A DNA stretch of 40,833 nt from a virus (Duplodnaviria > Heunggongvirae > Uroviricota > Caudoviricetes): the IMG/VR virus record IMGVR_UViG_2534682161_000025. The stretch is one strand, 5' to 3'. Made by a program: the position numbers and the translations under genes. Numbering within the stretch: the stretch's first letter is position 1; each line of letters starts with the position of its first letter. Below, piece by piece: positions 23,149-34,823 of the stretch. Under the pieces are notes generated by a model. It made no database searches. It saw nothing but the letters and a program-made list of their open reading frames with translations, and was not told where the DNA came from.

Positions 23149-23441
23149 TCCTGTTCACTGGCCTCTTTGGCCATCTTCAAATACTGTTCAGGGCAATGCG
23201 CCATAACGCGCTGAAACAGTTCCAGCGCCAGATTGCGTTGCCCCTCATTAAATGCCATTGCCATAGCATCCATCGGAGAGATAGCGGAAAACACCCGGCC
23301 TTTCTCCAGCACAGACCAGACAACGCGACGCCCCTGTTCACTGCTCATGACAAAGCGAATGTCATCAATTTCACGTTGTGCCATGTCACGTTGCTTACGG
23401 GCGTTTTCTTCTTTCAGTTGATCGTCTTCGTAATCTGTCAT
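23145..23441 (-). CDS. Hypothetical small acidic head-module protein (98 aa)
   Basis: ATGA-coupled to portal stop and scaffold start. Confidence 0.5.
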   Translation of the reverse strand: MTDYEDDQLKEENARKQRDMAQREIDDIRFVMSSEQGRRVVWSVLEKGRVFSAISPMDAMAMAFNEGQRNLALELFQRVMAHCPEQYLKMAKEASEQE

Positions 23442-25117
23442 TGTGATTGCCCACCCTGACCACTAACTGCATTCGCCATAGCTGACAAAACACTCGGATC
23501 CGAAGTTTTAGCTTCGCTTAGCGTCTTGGCACCCTGTGCCGCCGCCATCCCCATCTCCATCATTTGTTGCTGCTGTTGTTGCTGTGCCCGTTGCTGGCGA
23601 GCCTGCTCAACCTGTTCCTGCGGAACAATGACGGTTGGAGACACTCCGGACATATCAGCGAATGCATCGATTGCCTGATCAACGTTGAGTTTGTCGAGAG
23701 CTTCTGGTTTCGCTTGCGCAAGTTGACCAATGAAGTTGACCGTAGACGCCAGACTGGACAGGCCGATAGACTTCTGCGCCTGAGCCATGACGGAAATGTA
23801 TTCGACCTTCAGGGGCATACCTTCCATCGCGTCAGGCGGGGGCGGCAGCATGTTTTTACGCACCATCATCGAGAAAGCGCGGTCAATGAGAGGATTAAGA
23901 CATTCGTCGTTCAGACGCTCCAGAACCGGCCCCAACATCAGAAGTTTTTCTTCTTTCATTTCGATCACCGCTTCAACAGGCATCGAACGGGTATTGATGT
24001 TCTGCAACATCATGAACAGATCGACAAAGTAGGCACTGTTAATGATTTGACGAGTGTCCTGAATGTCTGCCACCAGATCTGCTGTACTGGGGTTAACCAG
24101 ATAAGCAGGCCTGAAACCATCCTGACCAGTAATCTGATCGATATACGTGATGTCGCCAGGAAGAAGGGAGGCGCGCTGATTCTTGAGGGAAGTCGGAGCA
24201 ATCATCGGCGGATTGGTGGCTTTATCAATCAACTGCGACTTGCGCTTCTGGAGAAGCTGCAATGCCTTAACAGGTCCAAGCGCCAGCATACCCGGGCATG
24301 ATGATCCATAAACATCTTCGCCGTTAACTTCCCAGCGCGGAGCCATAATTGGAAACTCATCGAATCCTGACTCACGCAACAACTTGTCGTTATCACCGCC
24401 AACCTCGTAATAAACCGATTTGAATGGCTTGTTCTTGCTATCCAGCTTCGATGTATCGCGGTCAATGTTCGGGTAAACCGAATGCATCACTTCAATCCAC
24501 TTCTCGTAGGTGCCGCTTTCCCACATGCTTTTTACGGATTCGCTGACGTTATTTAGCCCGAACTCCTGAACAAGCTGACGAACAGTCATAGAGAACTTGC
24601 GAAAACAGGTGTCCACACTGCCACGAGGTGAGTTAGCCAGGTAGTAACTGCCTATCGGGAATGGCATTGTGCGAATGATGTCATCGTCATCCTCCAGTAC
24701 CGCCATTGCACCAGTGCTGTATGTGCCGAGGCTTCCGTATAACTGCGGCAGCGACTGATAGAGATTCGACTTATTGAACATATCGTTCATGCGGTTCTGC
24801 ACCGCCTCAAGCCACAACTTAACAGGGCCATAATCCATCATTTCAGGATCTGGCGTAGCCAGGCGAAACCACGGACGCGCGGGGCTTGTGATGCCTGACA
24901 TCATGCCGCTGGCGAGAGTGCGCGCCGCCATAGTCCCGGTCGAATCAATAATGCGTGTATTGCGTCGATCGTTACGGTTGACCTCAGAAGTCAGAAAGCG
25001 GGAACCACGCGGGTTGATGTAATCACTCAACTCGCGCCAGTGCGGCTCGAACGACTGACGCTCGCTTTCAAGTTGTGCGAACTGTTTGTTCAATCGCTCT
25101 TTAGTTGTTTCCGCCAT
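23438..25117 (-). CDS. Portal (head-to-tail connector), T7 gp8-like podovirus type
   Basis: 559 aa; Q-rich/Ala-Met-rich C-terminus (QQRAQQQQQQQMMEMGMAAAQGA) and N-terminal region resemble the T7 connector; GGAG SD. Confidence 0.7.
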   Translation of the reverse strand: MAETTKERLNKQFAQLESERQSFEPHWRELSDYINPRGSRFLTSEVNRNDRRNTRIIDSTGTMAARTLASGMMSGITSPARPWFRLATPDPEMMDYGPVKLWLEAVQNRMNDMFNKSNLYQSLPQLYGSLGTYSTGAMAVLEDDDDIIRTMPFPIGSYYLANSPRGSVDTCFRKFSMTVRQLVQEFGLNNVSESVKSMWESGTYEKWIEVMHSVYPNIDRDTSKLDSKNKPFKSVYYEVGGDNDKLLRESGFDEFPIMAPRWEVNGEDVYGSSCPGMLALGPVKALQLLQKRKSQLIDKATNPPMIAPTSLKNQRASLLPGDITYIDQITGQDGFRPAYLVNPSTADLVADIQDTRQIINSAYFVDLFMMLQNINTRSMPVEAVIEMKEEKLLMLGPVLERLNDECLNPLIDRAFSMMVRKNMLPPPPDAMEGMPLKVEYISVMAQAQKSIGLSSLASTVNFIGQLAQAKPEALDKLNVDQAIDAFADMSGVSPTVIVPQEQVEQARQQRAQQQQQQQMMEMGMAAAQGAKTLSEAKTSDPSVLSAMANAVSGQGGQSQ

Positions 25118-25131
25118 TTCAATGACTCCGG

Positions 25132-25338
25132 TTACTGACCAAGCAGCGTTTTACCGCTGGTATTAGCGGTTGATGTGTCACCCTGAGAACCGGTAAGCAG
25201 CGTAGAACTACGACCAGCAGCAGCGCGACGGCGACGTGTTTCTTCGTCGCGGGCATCAACAACGGCGGCATCCTGCTCCTGTGGTGCTGCCTGAACTTCT
25301 GGTGTTGCAGGCACTGATGGTGAGCTACCCATGCACAT
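25132..25338 (-). CDS. Hypothetical small protein (68 aa)
   Basis: ATG preceded by CGGAGTCATTGAT, nearly the same initiation region as the portal gene (CGGAGTCATTGAA). Confidence 0.4.
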   Translation of the reverse strand: MCMGSSPSVPATPEVQAAPQEQDAAVVDARDEETRRRRAAAGRSSTLLTGSQGDTSTANTSGKTLLGQ

Positions 25339-25428
25339 ATCAATGACTCCGTACGCAATTAAATTATTACCAATTTAACCACATATGATTTATTTATCGT
25401 AGACAGTTGACATTTAACGCACGAATTA

Positions 25429-25443
25429 TTACCTTTCAGGTAA
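25429..25443. promoter_or_regulatory. Dyad site TTACC-tttca-GGTAA (site C), preceded by TTGACA
   Basis: AATTATTACCTTTCAGGTAA; TTGACA at 25407..25412; heads the plus-strand tRNA island. Confidence 0.45.
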
Positions 25444-25765
25444 GCAGAGAGTGCATTCCTGTTATTAACCTGACTGGCTTGTCGTTAAATTGAACAGGTG
25501 GAGTGAGATTTTATTTTGAGCAGTACGGCGTATGGCACATGCGCCGATAGCGGTCTGGATACGTTTAATGGGCACCCTCCCTTGCTCGGGCAAACGAACC
25601 AGGTAGCCGGAATGTGCAAGTCGAGCGGTTTTATTCCGCGCACGGGGATTCACCATCCCGGCGATTCGGTGTGACGCCTCGGAAGAGACGAGGGTGCAAC
25701 GATGAGAGCATTTATGGAGCCGCGACAAAGTGTGGCGCCTTAACAGGCTAAGTGCTCTCAGCGTT

Positions 25766-25842
25766 GTGGCATTAGCTCAGTTGGACAGAGCAACCGCCTT
25801 CTAAGCGGTCGGTCGCAGGTTCGAATCCTGCATGCCACGCCA
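25766..25842 (+). tRNA. tRNA-Arg (anticodon UCU, reads AGA), phage-encoded
   Basis: 77 nt; 7-bp acceptor stem GTGGCAT/ATGCCAC, D-arm GCTC/GAGC, anticodon loop CTTCTAA, T-arm GCAGG-TTCGAAT-CCTGC, encoded CCA; related to but distinct from host argU. Confidence 0.85.
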
Positions 25843-25886
25843 GAATCACGCCTAAGGACCGTGATGCCAGAAGTTCCAGGGGCTTG

Positions 25887-25927
25887 GCGGTGATGGTTTC
25901 CCTTGAAGGACTATCACCGCCCTTTTT
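25887..25927 (+). terminator. Intrinsic terminator after the tRNA
   Basis: ggcggtgat...atcaccgcc stem followed by CTTTTT. Confidence 0.5.
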
Positions 25928-26045
25928 ACAGCAGGACGCCATTGCGATGGCTTCATGCTGTAAACCAGTACAGCCACGGAAGGCATAACTCATTGCTTCC
26001 AGTTCGCCCGGTTCGCCGGGCATTTTTTTAAGGTGAGATTAGACT

Positions 26046-26417
26046 ATGAGTGACAAAGACATTGAATCTGAAATTCAGGCTAAAGGTTTAGCCGCGCCGC
26101 GCGTTACGCCAGACCATATCGAGAGTATTATTGCTCAGGAGGCATATTTCACAGCAGAAGATGGTATCTTTGGCGTAGCCATAAAAGCGAAACATACTGG
26201 CGGAGAGGTAAACTACCAGCCGCACGAATCACTTTCTCTGCTGACGTTCTGCGTTCTGGTGCTGCGCAATGGCTTCACCGTCACCGGAGAGAGCGCCTGT
26301 GCAAGCCCGGAAAACTTTGATGCGGAAATTGGTCGGAAGATTGCCCGGCAGAATGCTGTAAACAAAATCTGGATGCTTGAAGGTTACTTGCTGAAGCAGA
26401 AGTTAAGCGAGCAATAA
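26046..26417 (+). CDS. Conserved phage protein, possibly N4 Gp49 / Sf6 gp66 family; moron
   Basis: 123 aa; ATG with AGGTGAGA SD; family assignment from memory of similar prophage proteins, not verified. Confidence 0.6.
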   Translation: MSDKDIESEIQAKGLAAPRVTPDHIESIIAQEAYFTAEDGIFGVAIKAKHTGGEVNYQPHESLSLLTFCVLVLRNGFTVTGESACASPENFDAEIGRKIARQNAVNKIWMLEGYLLKQKLSEQ

Positions 26418-26421
26418 CACC

Positions 26422-26433
26422 GTGACATGTCAC
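26422..26433. repeat. Perfect 12-bp palindrome GTGACATGTCAC (copy 2 of 3)
   Basis: Lies 4 bp after the stop of the 26046 gene and 4 bp before a terminator hairpin. Confidence 0.8.
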
Positions 26434-26437
26434 AAAC

Positions 26438-26465
26438 AGCCAGCCGATGAGCTGGCTTTGTTTTA
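26438..26465 (+). terminator. Intrinsic terminator
   Basis: agccagc-cgatga-gctggct followed by TTGTTTT. Confidence 0.6.
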
Positions 26466-26507
26466 TCCTCACCAGAGGATATCTCCGTCATTATCCCCGC
26501 TAACGGA

Positions 26508-27983
26508 TTAAGCATAGGGATCGTAATCTGTAATGGCCTTGCCTTGCTGGTTCTGCTGCCCGGGAATTCGCAGACGCTTAGACACAGGGAACGCAAACGT
26601 CAGCAGTAGCGCATCGCCTTTACCCGGCGAACGCCCAAGCCGCTCCTTGATATCTTCCTTCGGTTCGATAACGATTTTACCGTCCACTCGAACTTTGTAC
26701 TCTGCCGCCGACAGGTCGTCCGCTGTTTCCTGGTCATCCAGCATGCCGCCCAGCCTCAGCCATGTCTTGCATGAGTTGAACATCTCCCCACGCTTGTTGA
26801 GCATCTGCGGGTCAGTAGACGCGCCACCGAACGGAACAAGTTGCCATGTGCGCCCCCAACCGTCACCGATTGACTTCAGCCCGGTACCGTAACCGAAGTC
26901 GATGAACACCGCGTCAGCCTGATACTGGTCTTCAAAGTCAGCGATACGCTTCGCCATAATCAGATCATCAGTGGTCTTGTTGCCGGTCCACAGCACCTTA
27001 CTATGCAGCCCCTGCCGCAGGTATATCACAGCGTCATCAACGCCGGAGTATGCCGGGTCAACGCCGATTATCACCGGAGCATGTGCAACCTGCGCAGCGG
27101 TTACCACCCGTTTCATTGCCTCGTCAGTAAGTCCGGTAGGGATAAACTGCAATTCAGATGCATCCGGGAATATGCCGCGCACACGGATTTTAACGAAGTC
27201 GCTGTCTTCCCCGTAGTCATCAACCCATTTCTGCAACTGCTGTTTGTTAGTGCCTTCCACCGTCCGGCTGTCAATCTGCGCAGTTTTCCAGCGGTGTTTA
27301 TATTTGCGGAAACATTCGCGGAAACGCCCGGTGTTACGTGTAGGGTTTCCGAACGCCACCCAGATAATCTCAGTGTCTTCGTCCGTAAGCGCACCCTCAG
27401 CAACTTCCCACACCAGATCCGCAATGTTCGACGCTTCATCGAATACCACGATGATGCGTTTGCGCTCGTTGTGTAGTCCGGCGAATGCCTCAGTGTTGTG
27501 CTCAGACCAGGGGATTGCGTCAGCTCGCCACCGCTTGTCGTGCCCAGGATCATTGCTGTACATCGCGGTAGCGGTACAGGTAAACCAGTCTTTCGTGATA
27601 GCAAGGTTCGACCACTTGATAATTTCCGGCCAGGTCTTCGTTCGTAGCTGGTTGTCGGTGTTGGCGGTCACCACGACCTTACAATCCTCGCAAGTGGACA
27701 TGCCCCAGTTGATCAGCATTGAGATGAATGCGGATTTACCAATACCGTGACCAGAAGCGCGTGCCAGCATAAGCGGCTGATAGCGCGTCGCTGGATTCTG
27801 CAGGTGATCACGTATCTCTCGGAACGCATCAGCCTGCCACTGACGTGGGCCGGTAGCATGTGCCAGTTCAGTCCCTTCTTCCCCCCACGGGAACGCATAG
27901 AGGGCATAGCCAAGCGGATCGTGAGTGAACCCTGCAATATCCTCGATCAACTGCTCTTCAGGAGATAACGCTGTATCTGTCAC
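26508..27983 (-). CDS. Terminase large subunit
   Basis: 491 aa; Walker A-like GHGIGKS near the N-terminus; GTG start overlapping small-subunit stop (GTGA). Confidence 0.8.
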   Translation of the reverse strand: MTDTALSPEEQLIEDIAGFTHDPLGYALYAFPWGEEGTELAHATGPRQWQADAFREIRDHLQNPATRYQPLMLARASGHGIGKSAFISMLINWGMSTCEDCKVVVTANTDNQLRTKTWPEIIKWSNLAITKDWFTCTATAMYSNDPGHDKRWRADAIPWSEHNTEAFAGLHNERKRIIVVFDEASNIADLVWEVAEGALTDEDTEIIWVAFGNPTRNTGRFRECFRKYKHRWKTAQIDSRTVEGTNKQQLQKWVDDYGEDSDFVKIRVRGIFPDASELQFIPTGLTDEAMKRVVTAAQVAHAPVIIGVDPAYSGVDDAVIYLRQGLHSKVLWTGNKTTDDLIMAKRIADFEDQYQADAVFIDFGYGTGLKSIGDGWGRTWQLVPFGGASTDPQMLNKRGEMFNSCKTWLRLGGMLDDQETADDLSAAEYKVRVDGKIVIEPKEDIKERLGRSPGKGDALLLTFAFPVSKRLRIPGQQNQQGKAITDYDPYA

Positions 27984-33649: not shown

Positions 33650-33664
33650 TTACCTTTAAGGTAC
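33650..33664. promoter_or_regulatory. Dyad site TTACC-tttaa-GGTAC (site F)
   Basis: Motif family member just downstream of the terminator that follows the cro-like gene. Confidence 0.35.
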
Positions 33665-33670
33665 GAATAG

Positions 33671-33697
33671 ATATGAAAAGACCGCCGGATGGCGGTC
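33671..33697 (-). terminator. Intrinsic terminator after the cro-like gene (tR1-like position)
   Basis: gaccgcc-ggat-ggcggtc hairpin followed on the minus strand by TTTTCAT. Confidence 0.5.
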
Positions 33698-33719
33698 TAC
33701 AGAGGGTTGTAGCTGGATA

Positions 33720-33950
33720 TCATGAGTAGAAGAAGTATGCCAGTTCTGCTTTTGAGCGCAGCCATTGTCTTGTTTTACAGGCTTTAAAAAGCCCATTCAT
33801 CAATACTTTACCTGGCATTTTTCGCTTACCTGTTAAGTGAGTCTGGATATAGTGACTCGTCGTTCCGGCTTCCTGTGCGAAGGCTTCACGCTCATCCGGA
33901 GTAAGTGCAAGCCAGTGCTTTTTGAAATCGAAATGTCCGTTATCGCTCAT
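33720..33950 (-). CDS. Cro-like small DNA-binding protein
   Basis: 76 aa; HTH-like segment; first gene of the minus-strand early-right operon, divergent from the repressor candidate. Confidence 0.55.
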   Translation of the reverse strand: MSDNGHFDFKKHWLALTPDEREAFAQEAGTTSHYIQTHLTGKRKMPGKVLMNGLFKACKTRQWLRSKAELAYFFYS

Positions 33951-33975
33951 AGCTATTGCCTGATATTTATTTCAG

Positions 33976-34049
33976 ATAATAAATATTCACCCATAAGGTA
34001 ACAAAAATCAAGGATAGTTACCTATGAGGTGCATTTACCTGTTGGGTAA
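33976..34049. promoter_or_regulatory. Immunity-region operator/promoter cluster: three dyad sites plus a PR-like promoter
   Basis: Sites TCACC-cataa-GGTAA (33987), TTACC-tatga-GGTGC (34018), TTACC-tgttg-GGTAA (34035); minus-strand TTGTTA (33999..34004), 17 bp, TATTAT (33976..33981) overlapping the first site. Confidence 0.5.
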
Positions 34050-34104
34050 TATTGCTTTAAATTGAATCATCTACTGATTCATATATGAGGCGATTTTCCA
34101 GAAA

Positions 34105-34689
34105 ATGAAAAGTATCCAGGACGTCCGCAGGCAAAATCTCAACGACTTGATCGACCGTGAATTCAATGGTGTTCAGACGCGGATGGCAGAAAAACTTGGA
34201 ACTCAGGCAAATCTGGTAAACCGCTGGGCTCTTGGCAAGAAGGTTATCGGCGACCAGGTTGCGCGAAAAATTGAAGCTGCCGCCAATAAACCCCGTAACT
34301 GGCTTGATATCGATCGCTCGCTTTCTCAGGAAGGTTTTCAGCCTGTCGGCCCAAGCGACATTGGTCAGCTGGCGGCTCACAACCTGGAACGCTGGATGAG
34401 CGAAAGCCGCGACCTTTCAACACAGGGAAAACTTCACCGCGCATCCGGCGTCGCCCAGGTGACAATCAGCCGCCTGTTAAACAATGAGGTCAGCGTTTCC
34501 ATTTCCACCCTGGAGAATGTTGCATCTGCATTCGGGCGTCACGGATATGAACTACTGATTCATCCGCATGACCCTGCAACTATCAACTATGACCGCTCGC
34601 GCTACGCATTGTTACCTGAAACAGAGAAGGCAAAGATCGAAAGTTACATTGAATTTGTCATCAACCAGAACGAAAAAAACAAACAATAA
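34105..34689 (+). CDS. Candidate prophage repressor: two-HTH DNA-binding protein, no recognisable LexA-like autocleavage domain
   Basis: 194 aa; HTH-like segments near residues 25-45 and 110-135 (SGVAQVTISRLLNNE); own terminator downstream. Confidence 0.5.
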   Translation: MKSIQDVRRQNLNDLIDREFNGVQTRMAEKLGTQANLVNRWALGKKVIGDQVARKIEAAANKPRNWLDIDRSLSQEGFQPVGPSDIGQLAAHNLERWMSESRDLSTQGKLHRASGVAQVTISRLLNNEVSVSISTLENVASAFGRHGYELLIHPHDPATINYDRSRYALLPETEKAKIESYIEFVINQNEKNKQ

Positions 34690-34709
34690 AATCATATTTT
34701 TCAGTAAGT

Positions 34710-34735
34710 AAGCCGCCTTATGGCGGCTTTTTTAT
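34710..34735 (+). terminator. Intrinsic terminator after the repressor candidate
   Basis: aagccgcc-ttat-ggcggctt followed by TTTTTT. Confidence 0.65.
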
Positions 34736-34746
34736 TGCCTATTCGA

Positions 34747-34823
34747 TTACCTAACGGGTAATTTTTTTAACTCATATCTATTGACATCAAACCAGATACG
34801 CATAATTATTACCTCAACGGTAA
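34747..34823. promoter_or_regulatory. PL-like promoter with two dyad sites
   Basis: TTACC-taacg-GGTAA (34747), TTGACA (34781..34786), then AATTATTACC-tcaac-GGTAA (34809) over the -10/+1 region. Confidence 0.5.

Follow-up and report, generated by a model that had tools for sequence, protein, structure and literature searches.

The stretch of DNA analysed here, hereafter called the window, is the whole of the IMG/VR virus record IMGVR_UViG_2534682161_000025, 40,833 nucleotides (nt) from a podophage of the phiV10/epsilon15 type (Uetakevirus), whose positions 25340-26480 are 98.7% identical to phiV10 by BLAST. At this place an island of plus-strand features sits between minus-strand late genes, with the large terminase gene (26508-27983) on one side and gp3 (25132-25338) and the portal gene (23438-25117) on the other; the names of these flanking genes were taken from the phiV10 record because of its 98.7% identity. 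A preliminary description had pictured the island as a transfer RNA (tRNA) gene, tRNA-Arg(UCU), with an unusually long leader, opposite in strand to the late genes, headed by a TTGACA and a dyad, provided with its own terminator and followed by a Gp49-like gene. Each of these elements was found where it had been placed (Table 1), the terminators as plus-strand hairpins with T-runs in a scan. The stretch of about 320 nt between promoter and tRNA, said to hold no plausible open reading frame (ORF), had no ORFs but short ones whose start codons are not ATG. As an observation, a tRNA with a long leader is ordinary. The content of the leader, to judge from our alignments, is an unannotated, widespread and strongly covarying family of RNAs carried by textbook phages, which we call the M1-M2 RNA after its core (M1) and the long stem that follows it (M2).

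The core was described by a covariance model, R1, which finds exactly one copy in the whole window. It consists of four covarying helices (P1, P2, P4 and P5), one pseudoknot and several invariant single-stranded blocks, namely GUAGCCGGAAUGUGCAAG, AGCGG, GGCGAU, GGUGUGAC and the loop GAAGAG. When 31 diverse copies were aligned with MAFFT (alignment A3), 99.1% of the cells were paired, 10 pairs carried compensatory double changes and none of 500 shuffles was as good; sliding the 3' partners by 1-3 columns as a control left 25-49% of the cells paired. An alignment based on R1 (A7), comprising 91 distinct rows from 96 full-length copies in the loci examined, gave 98.2% of cells paired, double changes in 13 of the 23 pairs (239 cells), no shuffle as good among 500, and 31-47% of cells paired in the slid controls. 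Because A7 was fitted to the R1 model it leans toward the structure, and the MAFFT-based A3 agrees with it. Several pairs in M1 are invariant or frequent G-U pairs, which would be A-C mismatches on the other strand, and the RNA is therefore read from the plus strand. This strand matches that of the tRNA in the window, of the ban operon in phage P1 and of the PL operon in lambdoid phages. Taken as they stand, these patterns identify M1 as a conserved, plus-strand, pseudoknotted RNA.

For the pseudoknot the support is one pair only, which switches from C-G to A-U in one clade. To some extent the invariance of the central block is an artefact of ascertainment by the first search anchor; with the second anchor, the 5' half of the block was found to vary (GTAGCCGG, ACAACCGG, TCCGGAAG) and AUGUGCAAG was constant. 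A kissing helix between the loop of helix P1 (GCACAU) and AUGUGC, proposed by RNAalifold, was left as unsupported: both sides are invariant, single variants break the pairing, and truncated copies keep AUGUGCAAG without helix P1.

When the window was scanned with Rfam 15 (4227 models) at gathering thresholds, there was no match on M1-M2 and the tRNA was the only hit; at E <= 10 over 25300-26100 only noise was returned outside the tRNA, and at E <= 0.1 five related loci gave no match on the element. No earlier description of the RNA was met in the literature searched, and one may exist in the literature beyond that search. By BLAST, positions 25525-25770 or so of the window are about 83% identical to unannotated sequence in otherwise unrelated lambdoid phages (cdtI, mEp460, 2H10, Ayreon, and Stx2c and Stx2a phages), and a shorter core occurs in P1, P7, D6, RCS47 and SJ46 and in phages of Klebsiella, Enterobacter, Salmonella and Stenotrophomonas. 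When IMG/VR was scanned for exact motifs, each of two independent anchors returned at least 120 contigs. The element was found in 1064 of the 5426 complete E. coli genomes, in which PGAP leaves it without annotation, and in 591 plasmid records, the majority of them P1-like. For a scan of 596 Gb of contigs, the 14-mer used was too short, so that nearly all matches were due to chance and a copy in Kosakonia sacchari was the only real one. The taxonomic breadth rests on GenBank phages and IMG/VR and is undersampled.

The surroundings of the element differ between these phages. In cdtI and mEp460 the cI terminator is followed by an operator-flanked promoter (TTGACA-N16/17-CATAAT) and then by the element, at the head of the PL transcript and within an untranslated 5' region of about 600 nt. 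We rejected the idea that the lambdoid copies are morons expressed in the lysogen downstream of cI on the PRM transcript, because the cI terminator and the operator-flanked promoter intervene. The SfV/SfII/SfIV group of phages, to which the lambdoid carriers belong, is reported to be without N, cII and cIII (PMC3851460), and the first PL protein of the carriers (YfdP-like) is not N-like. The element is absent from E. coli K-12 CPS-53, where the downstream yfdPQRS operon is present. The order in the Stenotrophomonas phage is promoter, M1-M2, GC-rich terminator and ORFs. In phage P1 only M1 is present. It is separated from tRNA-Ile upstream by 15 nt and from ban downstream by about 90 nt, and both the C1-controlled promoter and a terminator that follows the dicF-like region lie a long way upstream of it. 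Truncated copies, made up of the 3' half only or of only GGUGUGAC and helix P5, stand directly after a consensus promoter and in the 5' untranslated region (5'UTR) of an RdgC-like gene; type-C copies contain half of M1 and M2, followed by the RdgC-like gene. The nearest downstream ORF is co-oriented with the element in 87 of 116 contexts, and most of the exceptions are spurious antisense ORFs over the RNA itself.

Table 1. Features of the plus-strand island in the window
Feature	Position	Strand	Evidence and remarks
Putative sigma-70 early promoter	25408..25436	+	-35 TTGACA 25408-25413, 17-nt spacer, -10 TACCTT 25431-25436; read from sequence
Operator-like dyad TTACCTTTCAGGTAA	25429..25443		perfect dyad; overlaps the -10 hexamer
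5' leader, from inferred start to M1 core	25444..25519	+	alignments and extracts
M1 structured RNA core	25520..25699	+	covariance model R1, 147.9 bits, E = 1.5e-47
M1 helix P1	25526-25531/25541-25546	+	covarying 5' hairpin
M1 helix P2	25554-25557/25600-25603	+	long-range helix around the variable arm
M1 invariant block GUAGCCGGAAUGUGCAAG	25603-25620	+	alignment
M1 helix P3	after the GUAGCCGGAAUGUGCAAG block	+	variable hairpin; alignment
M1 helix P4	25645-25648/25656-25659	+	hairpin; loop (C/A)ACC pairs with downstream GGU(G/U)
M1 pseudoknot	CACC 25651-25654 with GGUG 25668-25671	+	alignment
M1 helix P5	25677-25681/25689-25693	+	hairpin, loop GAAGAGA
M2, long stem P6	25695..25768 (25695-25710 with 25753-25768)	+	RNAalifold
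tRNA-Arg(UCU)	25766..25842	+	ARAGORN tRNA-Arg(tct); Rfam RF00005, 72.2 bits against a gathering threshold of 29; CCA encoded at 25840-25842
Intrinsic terminator T1	25886..25930 (scan hairpin 25886-25921)	+	14-base-pair stem GGCGGUGAUGG...CUAUCACCGCC, then CUUUUU
Putative hairpin with the T1 U-tract in its 5' strand	25925..25964	+	UUUACAGCA...UGCUGUAAA; read from sequence
Intrinsic terminator T2	26006..26029 (scan hairpin 26006-26021)	+	GCCCGGUUCGCCGGGC then AUUUUUUU; 17 nt ahead of the ORF start
ORF, 123 amino acids, Phage_gp49_66 family	26046..26417	+	Pfam PF13876, 121.3 bits against a cutoff of 27, E = 2.4e-35; phrog_322
Terminator T3, end of island	26438..26457	+	terminator scan; the phiV10 record has a terminator at the same place

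Behind helix P5 the M2 stem follows in 103 of the 135 unique contexts. Its two strands, CAACGAUGAGAGCA and UGCUCUCAGCGUUG, enclose an insert that varies between 24 and 333 nt in relatives, and RNAalifold, applied to 26 spliced M2 stems, returned 17 pairs, 4 with compensatory double changes and many of them G-U. C25697 is paired with G25766, the first nucleotide of the tRNA, which begins at the last base of M2. The stem is able to extend over tRNA positions 1-3, where its 5' partner changes only by transitions that preserve the pairing. Two other roles considered for M2 were given up: a boxA/boxC reading of its 3' strand was ruled out because that strand covaries with its partner, and against an antisense guide in the insert stand a complementarity to phage sequence no longer than an 11-mer and structure-preserving changes between the window and mEp460. 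Locus L024 (3994-4963, minus strand) holds the core twice, at a distance of about 640 nt; an AT-rich ORF of the opposite strand is inserted in M2 and is followed by a degenerate partial duplicate of M1. We did not accept the second copy as one of an L/R pair, because it is a degenerate duplicate beside an inserted moron; the M2 insert may be a hot spot for the insertion of morons.

The tRNA that follows M2 in the window, which reads AGA as the preliminary description had it, is called by both ARAGORN and Rfam and is the single tRNA that ARAGORN finds in the 40.8 kb. The rare-codon rationale put forward for it is reasonable, as AGA and AGG occur 6.1 and 4.0 times per 1000 codons in 38 ORFs of the window, roughly three times the typical usage in E. 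coli. Among the guesses made for the leader, that of a separate small RNA came closest; to regard it as a leader of the tRNA is misleading, because the same RNA is conserved where no tRNA follows, as in lambdoid PL leaders, in the Stenotrophomonas phage and in the 5'UTRs of ban in phage P1 and of the RdgC-like gene. The RNA is for this reason the conserved unit and the tRNA one of its several interchangeable 3' partners. The junction ...GUUG/UGG recurs with tRNA-Arg(tct) behind M2 inserts of differing lengths. In locus L171 (8173-8299) a different tRNA, with an insertion of about 50 nt, begins exactly at the M2 junction GUGG; it scores 42 bits with the Rfam tRNA model and looks Tyr(GUA)-like by eye, and ARAGORN makes no call. 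In the lambdoid phages and in the Uetakevirus L065, the slot is taken by segments of 90-130 nt of unrelated sequence, which close as GUGGU...ACCAC-A and have cloverleaf-like folds. Because the tRNA is interchangeable with non-tRNA cloverleaves in the same slot, this comparison suggests that the position of tRNA-Arg(UCU) is at least partly structural.

Upstream of the RNA, the putative promoter would start transcription near 25443-25445. A consensus promoter scan favours an overlapping candidate, TAGACA-18-AATTAT (25400-25429), over the TTGACA/TACCTT pair, and the arrangement of TTGACA plus dyad also lies ahead of the element in the relatives L065 and L141. The dyad pattern TTACCTNNNAGGTAA (TTACCT-N3-AGGTAA) has 16 matches with at most 2 mismatches in the window, compared to 0.83 expected, and these cluster at 31.6 kb and 33.6-34.8 kb. 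The pattern is matched exactly at 25429, 31618 and 31680, and nearly so within 33650-34823 (33650, 34035, 34747, 34809). Enriched and clustered in this way, the dyad behaves like a repressor operator. The cluster probably marks the operators of the phage repressor and the immunity region, and the dyad at 25429 would then probably place the island in the same regulon as the sites there, perhaps together with the site near 8.8 kb (8819). Between promoter and core, a box, GGAGUGCGCUUCCAGGUGUGA, is conserved just 5' of M1 in many copies (leaders of L130, L131, L133 and L006) and has diverged in the lineage of the window (25495-25519). The box resembles the 3' strand of M2 and may be a relic of tandem units or part of a further helix.

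Downstream, a strong intrinsic terminator is found 120-145 nt past the end of M2 in most contexts. The promoter scan found no promoter belonging to ORF 26046-26417 itself, and none was detectable between the cassette terminator and the ORFs in three independent phage groups. A long hairpin behind the terminator, with the U-tract in its 5' strand, is present in lambdoid phages too (L003 3425-3515) with unrelated sequence. Such hairpins may be processing sites of the RNase III type for read-through transcripts, and the epsilon15 record has an 'RNaseIII' feature annotated there. What is left of the protein gene in L065 is 8 codons between T2 and T3, beside an intact RNA cassette; in epsilon15 the ORF is kept and the RNA is degenerate (43 bits with R1). 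The RNA and the ORF are therefore separable modules. In L131 (3011-3532), from the Klebsiella phage ST512-KPC3phi13.3, a Tad2-like protein (PF11195, Thoeris anti-defence) replaces Gp49/66 in the ORF slot; the two proteins have no pairwise homology, and they match phrog_9467 in different parts. These observations point to a slot after the RNA cassette in which accessory or anti-defence genes can be exchanged.

Across the contexts compared, the features recur in one order: an apparent early promoter with operator, a leader, M1, the M2 stem with its variable insert, a tRNA or tRNA-like cloverleaf, one or more predicted terminators, and ORFs. We regard the modular nature of the M1-M2 cassette, and its placement behind what look like early promoters, as established by this comparison. 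Antisense coding sequences (CDSs) are annotated or possible over the tRNA or the structured RNA in the window (25772-26023, minus strand), L001 (3433-3684), L003 (2943-3311) and L004 (3282-3737). Because of their overlap with covarying RNA helices and a tRNA gene, PhiV10p04, mEp460_037 and cdtI orf40 are probably spurious gene calls. Rfam also recognised other RNAs that the respective records leave unannotated: beside the antirepressor genes of lambdoid loci it placed C4 antisense RNA and isrK, and in P1 and L136 it found STnc100-like RNAs (Rfam RNA coordinates: L003 706-894; L004 777-965; L005 2058-2177; L136 690-881).

How does such a cassette work? We tentatively favour, at a little less than an even chance, a reading in which the island forms an early RNA unit of its own, kept repressed in the lysogen, from which RNase P frees a product that acts in trans; the structured noncoding RNA rather than the tRNA would be the main conserved product. 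Departure of the repressor from the dyad overlapping the -10 hexamer would switch on the TTGACA promoter. The first 320 nt or so of the transcript would fold into the M1 core and the long M2 stem with its variable insert, a step for which structure and strand come from covariation. A cut by RNase P at 25765/25766 would yield both an M1-M2 RNA with a defined 3' end and a usable tRNA-Arg(UCU); such release is proposed because other phages have the same junction in front of a different tRNA or of tRNA-like cloverleaves. T1 and T2 would end most of the transcription, so that the gene of the Gp49/66 family would be reached by read-through only. Early in induction or infection, the freed M1-M2 RNA would then act in trans on some component that is conserved across gamma-proteobacterial hosts. 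As the same RNA is found in phages without shared proteins, the target would probably be a host protein or RNA machine, for example in transcription, RNA processing or a defence pathway. With the same reserve, an RNA gene of this kind seems to us the best explanation for the acceptor-like closure kept by unrelated sequences at one junction, the independent loss of RNA and ORF, and the single copy per phage.

Several points weigh against this reading. The promoter, the RNase P cut and the terminators are predictions at the level of consensus sequences. Early ORFs nearly always follow the element in the same orientation, and no promoter was detected for them after the terminator; this fits a cis-acting leader at least as well. 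In phage P1 (M1 and then ban) and in the type-C copies there is no tRNA-like handle or terminator, and the RNA would for that reason stay a 5'UTR. The tRNA-like segments could be decaying tRNA genes rather than processing handles under selection. Moreover, the deletion of the ORF in L065 looks recent, which makes the retention of the RNA there weak evidence of selection.

The main rival, possible and in our judgement somewhat less likely, is that M1 is a cis-acting early leader: the nascent RNA would bind the elongation complex and allow read-through of T1/T2 (and of Rho-dependent sites) into the early genes, as an analogue of the put RNAs of phage HK022 that is structurally unrelated to them. 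Consensus early promoters flanked by operators stand 40-120 nt upstream of the element in cdtI/mEp460-type lambdoids, in Uetakeviruses, in the Stenotrophomonas phage and in truncated copies, and three independent phage groups have a strong intrinsic terminator followed by promoter-less ORFs, which are co-oriented with the element in most contexts. Its lambdoid carriers are members of a group reported to be N-less (PMC3851460), as is HK022, which uses put (PMC9378689), and the first PL gene product is not N-like; the truncated copies keep the 3' part (GGUGUGAC and helix P5) right behind the promoter. This rival accounts best for the 5'UTR-type copies, for the place close to the promoter in N-less lambdoids and for the terminator ahead of promoter-less ORFs in the three phage groups. 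Antitermination sits less easily with a sequence that has no similarity to put (R1 gives 5.6 bits on the HK022 PL-nun interval), with one copy per phage and none at PR, and with the element of phage P1, far downstream of the first terminator of its operon. It also leaves the conserved tRNA or tRNA-like partner without a role, and RNA and ORF are lost independently. The RNA gene and the put-like antiterminator are not mutually exclusive.

Other explanations appear improbable to different degrees. That the structure is a passive leader, which shields a long untranslated early RNA from Rho or RNases or stabilises the tRNA precursor or the 5' end of the downstream mRNA without any specific partner, is rather unlikely: it would be in keeping with the long untranslated 5' regions in which the element always lies, about 600 nt in lambdoids, with the heavily structured flanking RNAs and with phage P1, where processing of tRNA-Ile would leave M1 at the start of the ban mRNA, but a generic stabiliser needs neither invariant single-stranded blocks nor a pseudoknot conserved from Escherichia to Stenotrophomonas phages. 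Still less likely is a sensor, either riboswitch-like or a factor-dependent attenuator, in which M1 would bind a small molecule or host factor, set the passage through the terminator and so couple early expression to host physiology. In its favour are the pseudoknot of the core with the invariant junction nucleotides, the placement in a 5' leader and the terminator downstream; yet no expression platform overlaps the conserved core, helix P5 has no U-tract and is not a terminator, the nearest terminator follows only after M2 and the tRNA, at a distance of about 190 nt or more, and the downstream genes are unrelated between contexts. Thus the usual marks of a riboswitch, a 3' part of the aptamer overlapping a platform and a consistent function of the downstream genes, were both missing. 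We see hardly any chance that the leader is a remnant of a degenerate tRNA or tRNA array, as the preliminary description had also considered, or that it is a protein-coding or DNA-level site. Arrays of tRNAs are common in phages, there are short ORFs on both strands of the leader region and CDSs have been annotated over the element (mEp460_037, cdtI orf40), but ARAGORN and the Rfam tRNA model are blank over 25444-25765, even at E <= 10. A protein-coding leader was discarded, as no frame is conserved among homologs and compensatory base-pair changes are found instead; the length of the M1 core leaves 0, 1 and 2 on division by three in 19, 9 and 16 representatives, and lengths differing by non-multiples of three exclude a coding reading of M1. 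Compensatory changes and strand-specific G-U pairs indicate an RNA rather than a protein or a DNA site.

As judged from its sequence and setting, we regard the M1-M2 RNA as a regulatory or structured RNA of phage early transcripts, with a substantial chance that it forms a new class. More specifically, we lean slightly toward M1 being the founding member of a new class of phage RNAs that works on a conserved host machine at lytic onset, either as an RNA-only antiterminator unrelated to put or as a host-factor-binding RNA with an RNase P handle, and that, passed on horizontally in the form of a cassette, has reached lambdoid (including Stx2), P1-like, epsilon15-like and other temperate phages and been overlooked in roughly a fifth of the sequenced E. 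coli genomes. If this is true, the long-studied phage P1, the Stx2-converting and SfV-type lambdoids and epsilon15/phiV10 carry an unrecognised pseudoknotted RNA at the head of early transcripts, and it would be a candidate answer to how N-less lambdoids other than HK022 pass the PL-leader terminator. It would also give annotation a new RNA family, at a place that PGAP and GenBank now leave blank or overlay with spurious CDSs, and many 'phage tRNA-Arg genes' would be the 3' module of an RNA cassette, in which the tRNA is maybe partly a processing handle. Because the element lies upstream of early or anti-defence-type cargo in Stx and other prophages, the dynamics of induction could be affected.

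Among known systems, the closest functional analogues are HK022 put and the phage regulators processed by RNase P, and neither shares homology with the M1-M2 RNA. C4 of P1/P7 and CI of P4 are small phage RNAs excised by RNase P from longer early or immunity transcripts, so that this theme already exists in phage P1. The C4 model (RF01695) has no match on M1-M2, although true C4 genes were detected elsewhere in the lambdoid loci, and the size and architecture differ. Stable RNAs C and D of T4, and GOLLD and ROOL, are structured phage RNAs that lie beside tRNA genes or are co-transcribed with them, and are matured with them; their carriers are lytic T-even phages or Firmicute prophages, and they have no tie to early promoters under repressor control. 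The Rfam scan, which included GOLLD and ROOL, was negative for both on M1-M2. With the nutL/N leader of lambda, made up of boxA, boxB and an RNase III hairpin, the M1-M2 RNA has in common that it is the first element of a PL transcript and that the 3' strand of M2, GUGCUCUYNNCG, resembles boxA; the 5-base-pair hairpin P5 with its loop GAAGAGA loosely resembles the boxB loop of nutL (GAAGA). However, the boxA-like string in M2 is base-paired and covarying, so that structure and not sequence is conserved, and the RNA is much larger, occurs also outside lambdoids and has no N-like protein, which sets it apart from nut sites.

The put RNAs of HK022 are about 70 nt long with two stem-loops, are encoded in cis, need no phage protein and act on a conserved host machine (PMC9378689). 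Their marks include binding to the zinc-binding domain of the beta-prime subunit of RNA polymerase and suppression of termination. The M1-M2 RNA is like putL/putR in that it lies just past the repressor-controlled early promoter of N-less lambdoids, with terminators after it, antitermination being hypothetical here. At best R1 reached 5.6 bits (E = 0.059) on the HK022 PL-nun interval, and inspection of the sequences revealed no similarity. A 10-mer, GAACGGCAAU, is common to HK022 putL (L326 about 655-664, minus strand) and to the leader immediately ahead of the core in copies of type B (e.g. L135, L142), probably by chance. Whereas put occurs twice, at L and R, the M1-M2 RNA occurs once per phage, including in lambdoid loci that cover cro and the PR-proximal genes; with 165-250 nt or more and at least four helices plus a pseudoknot, it is also the larger and more elaborate RNA, and it extends to non-lambdoid phages.

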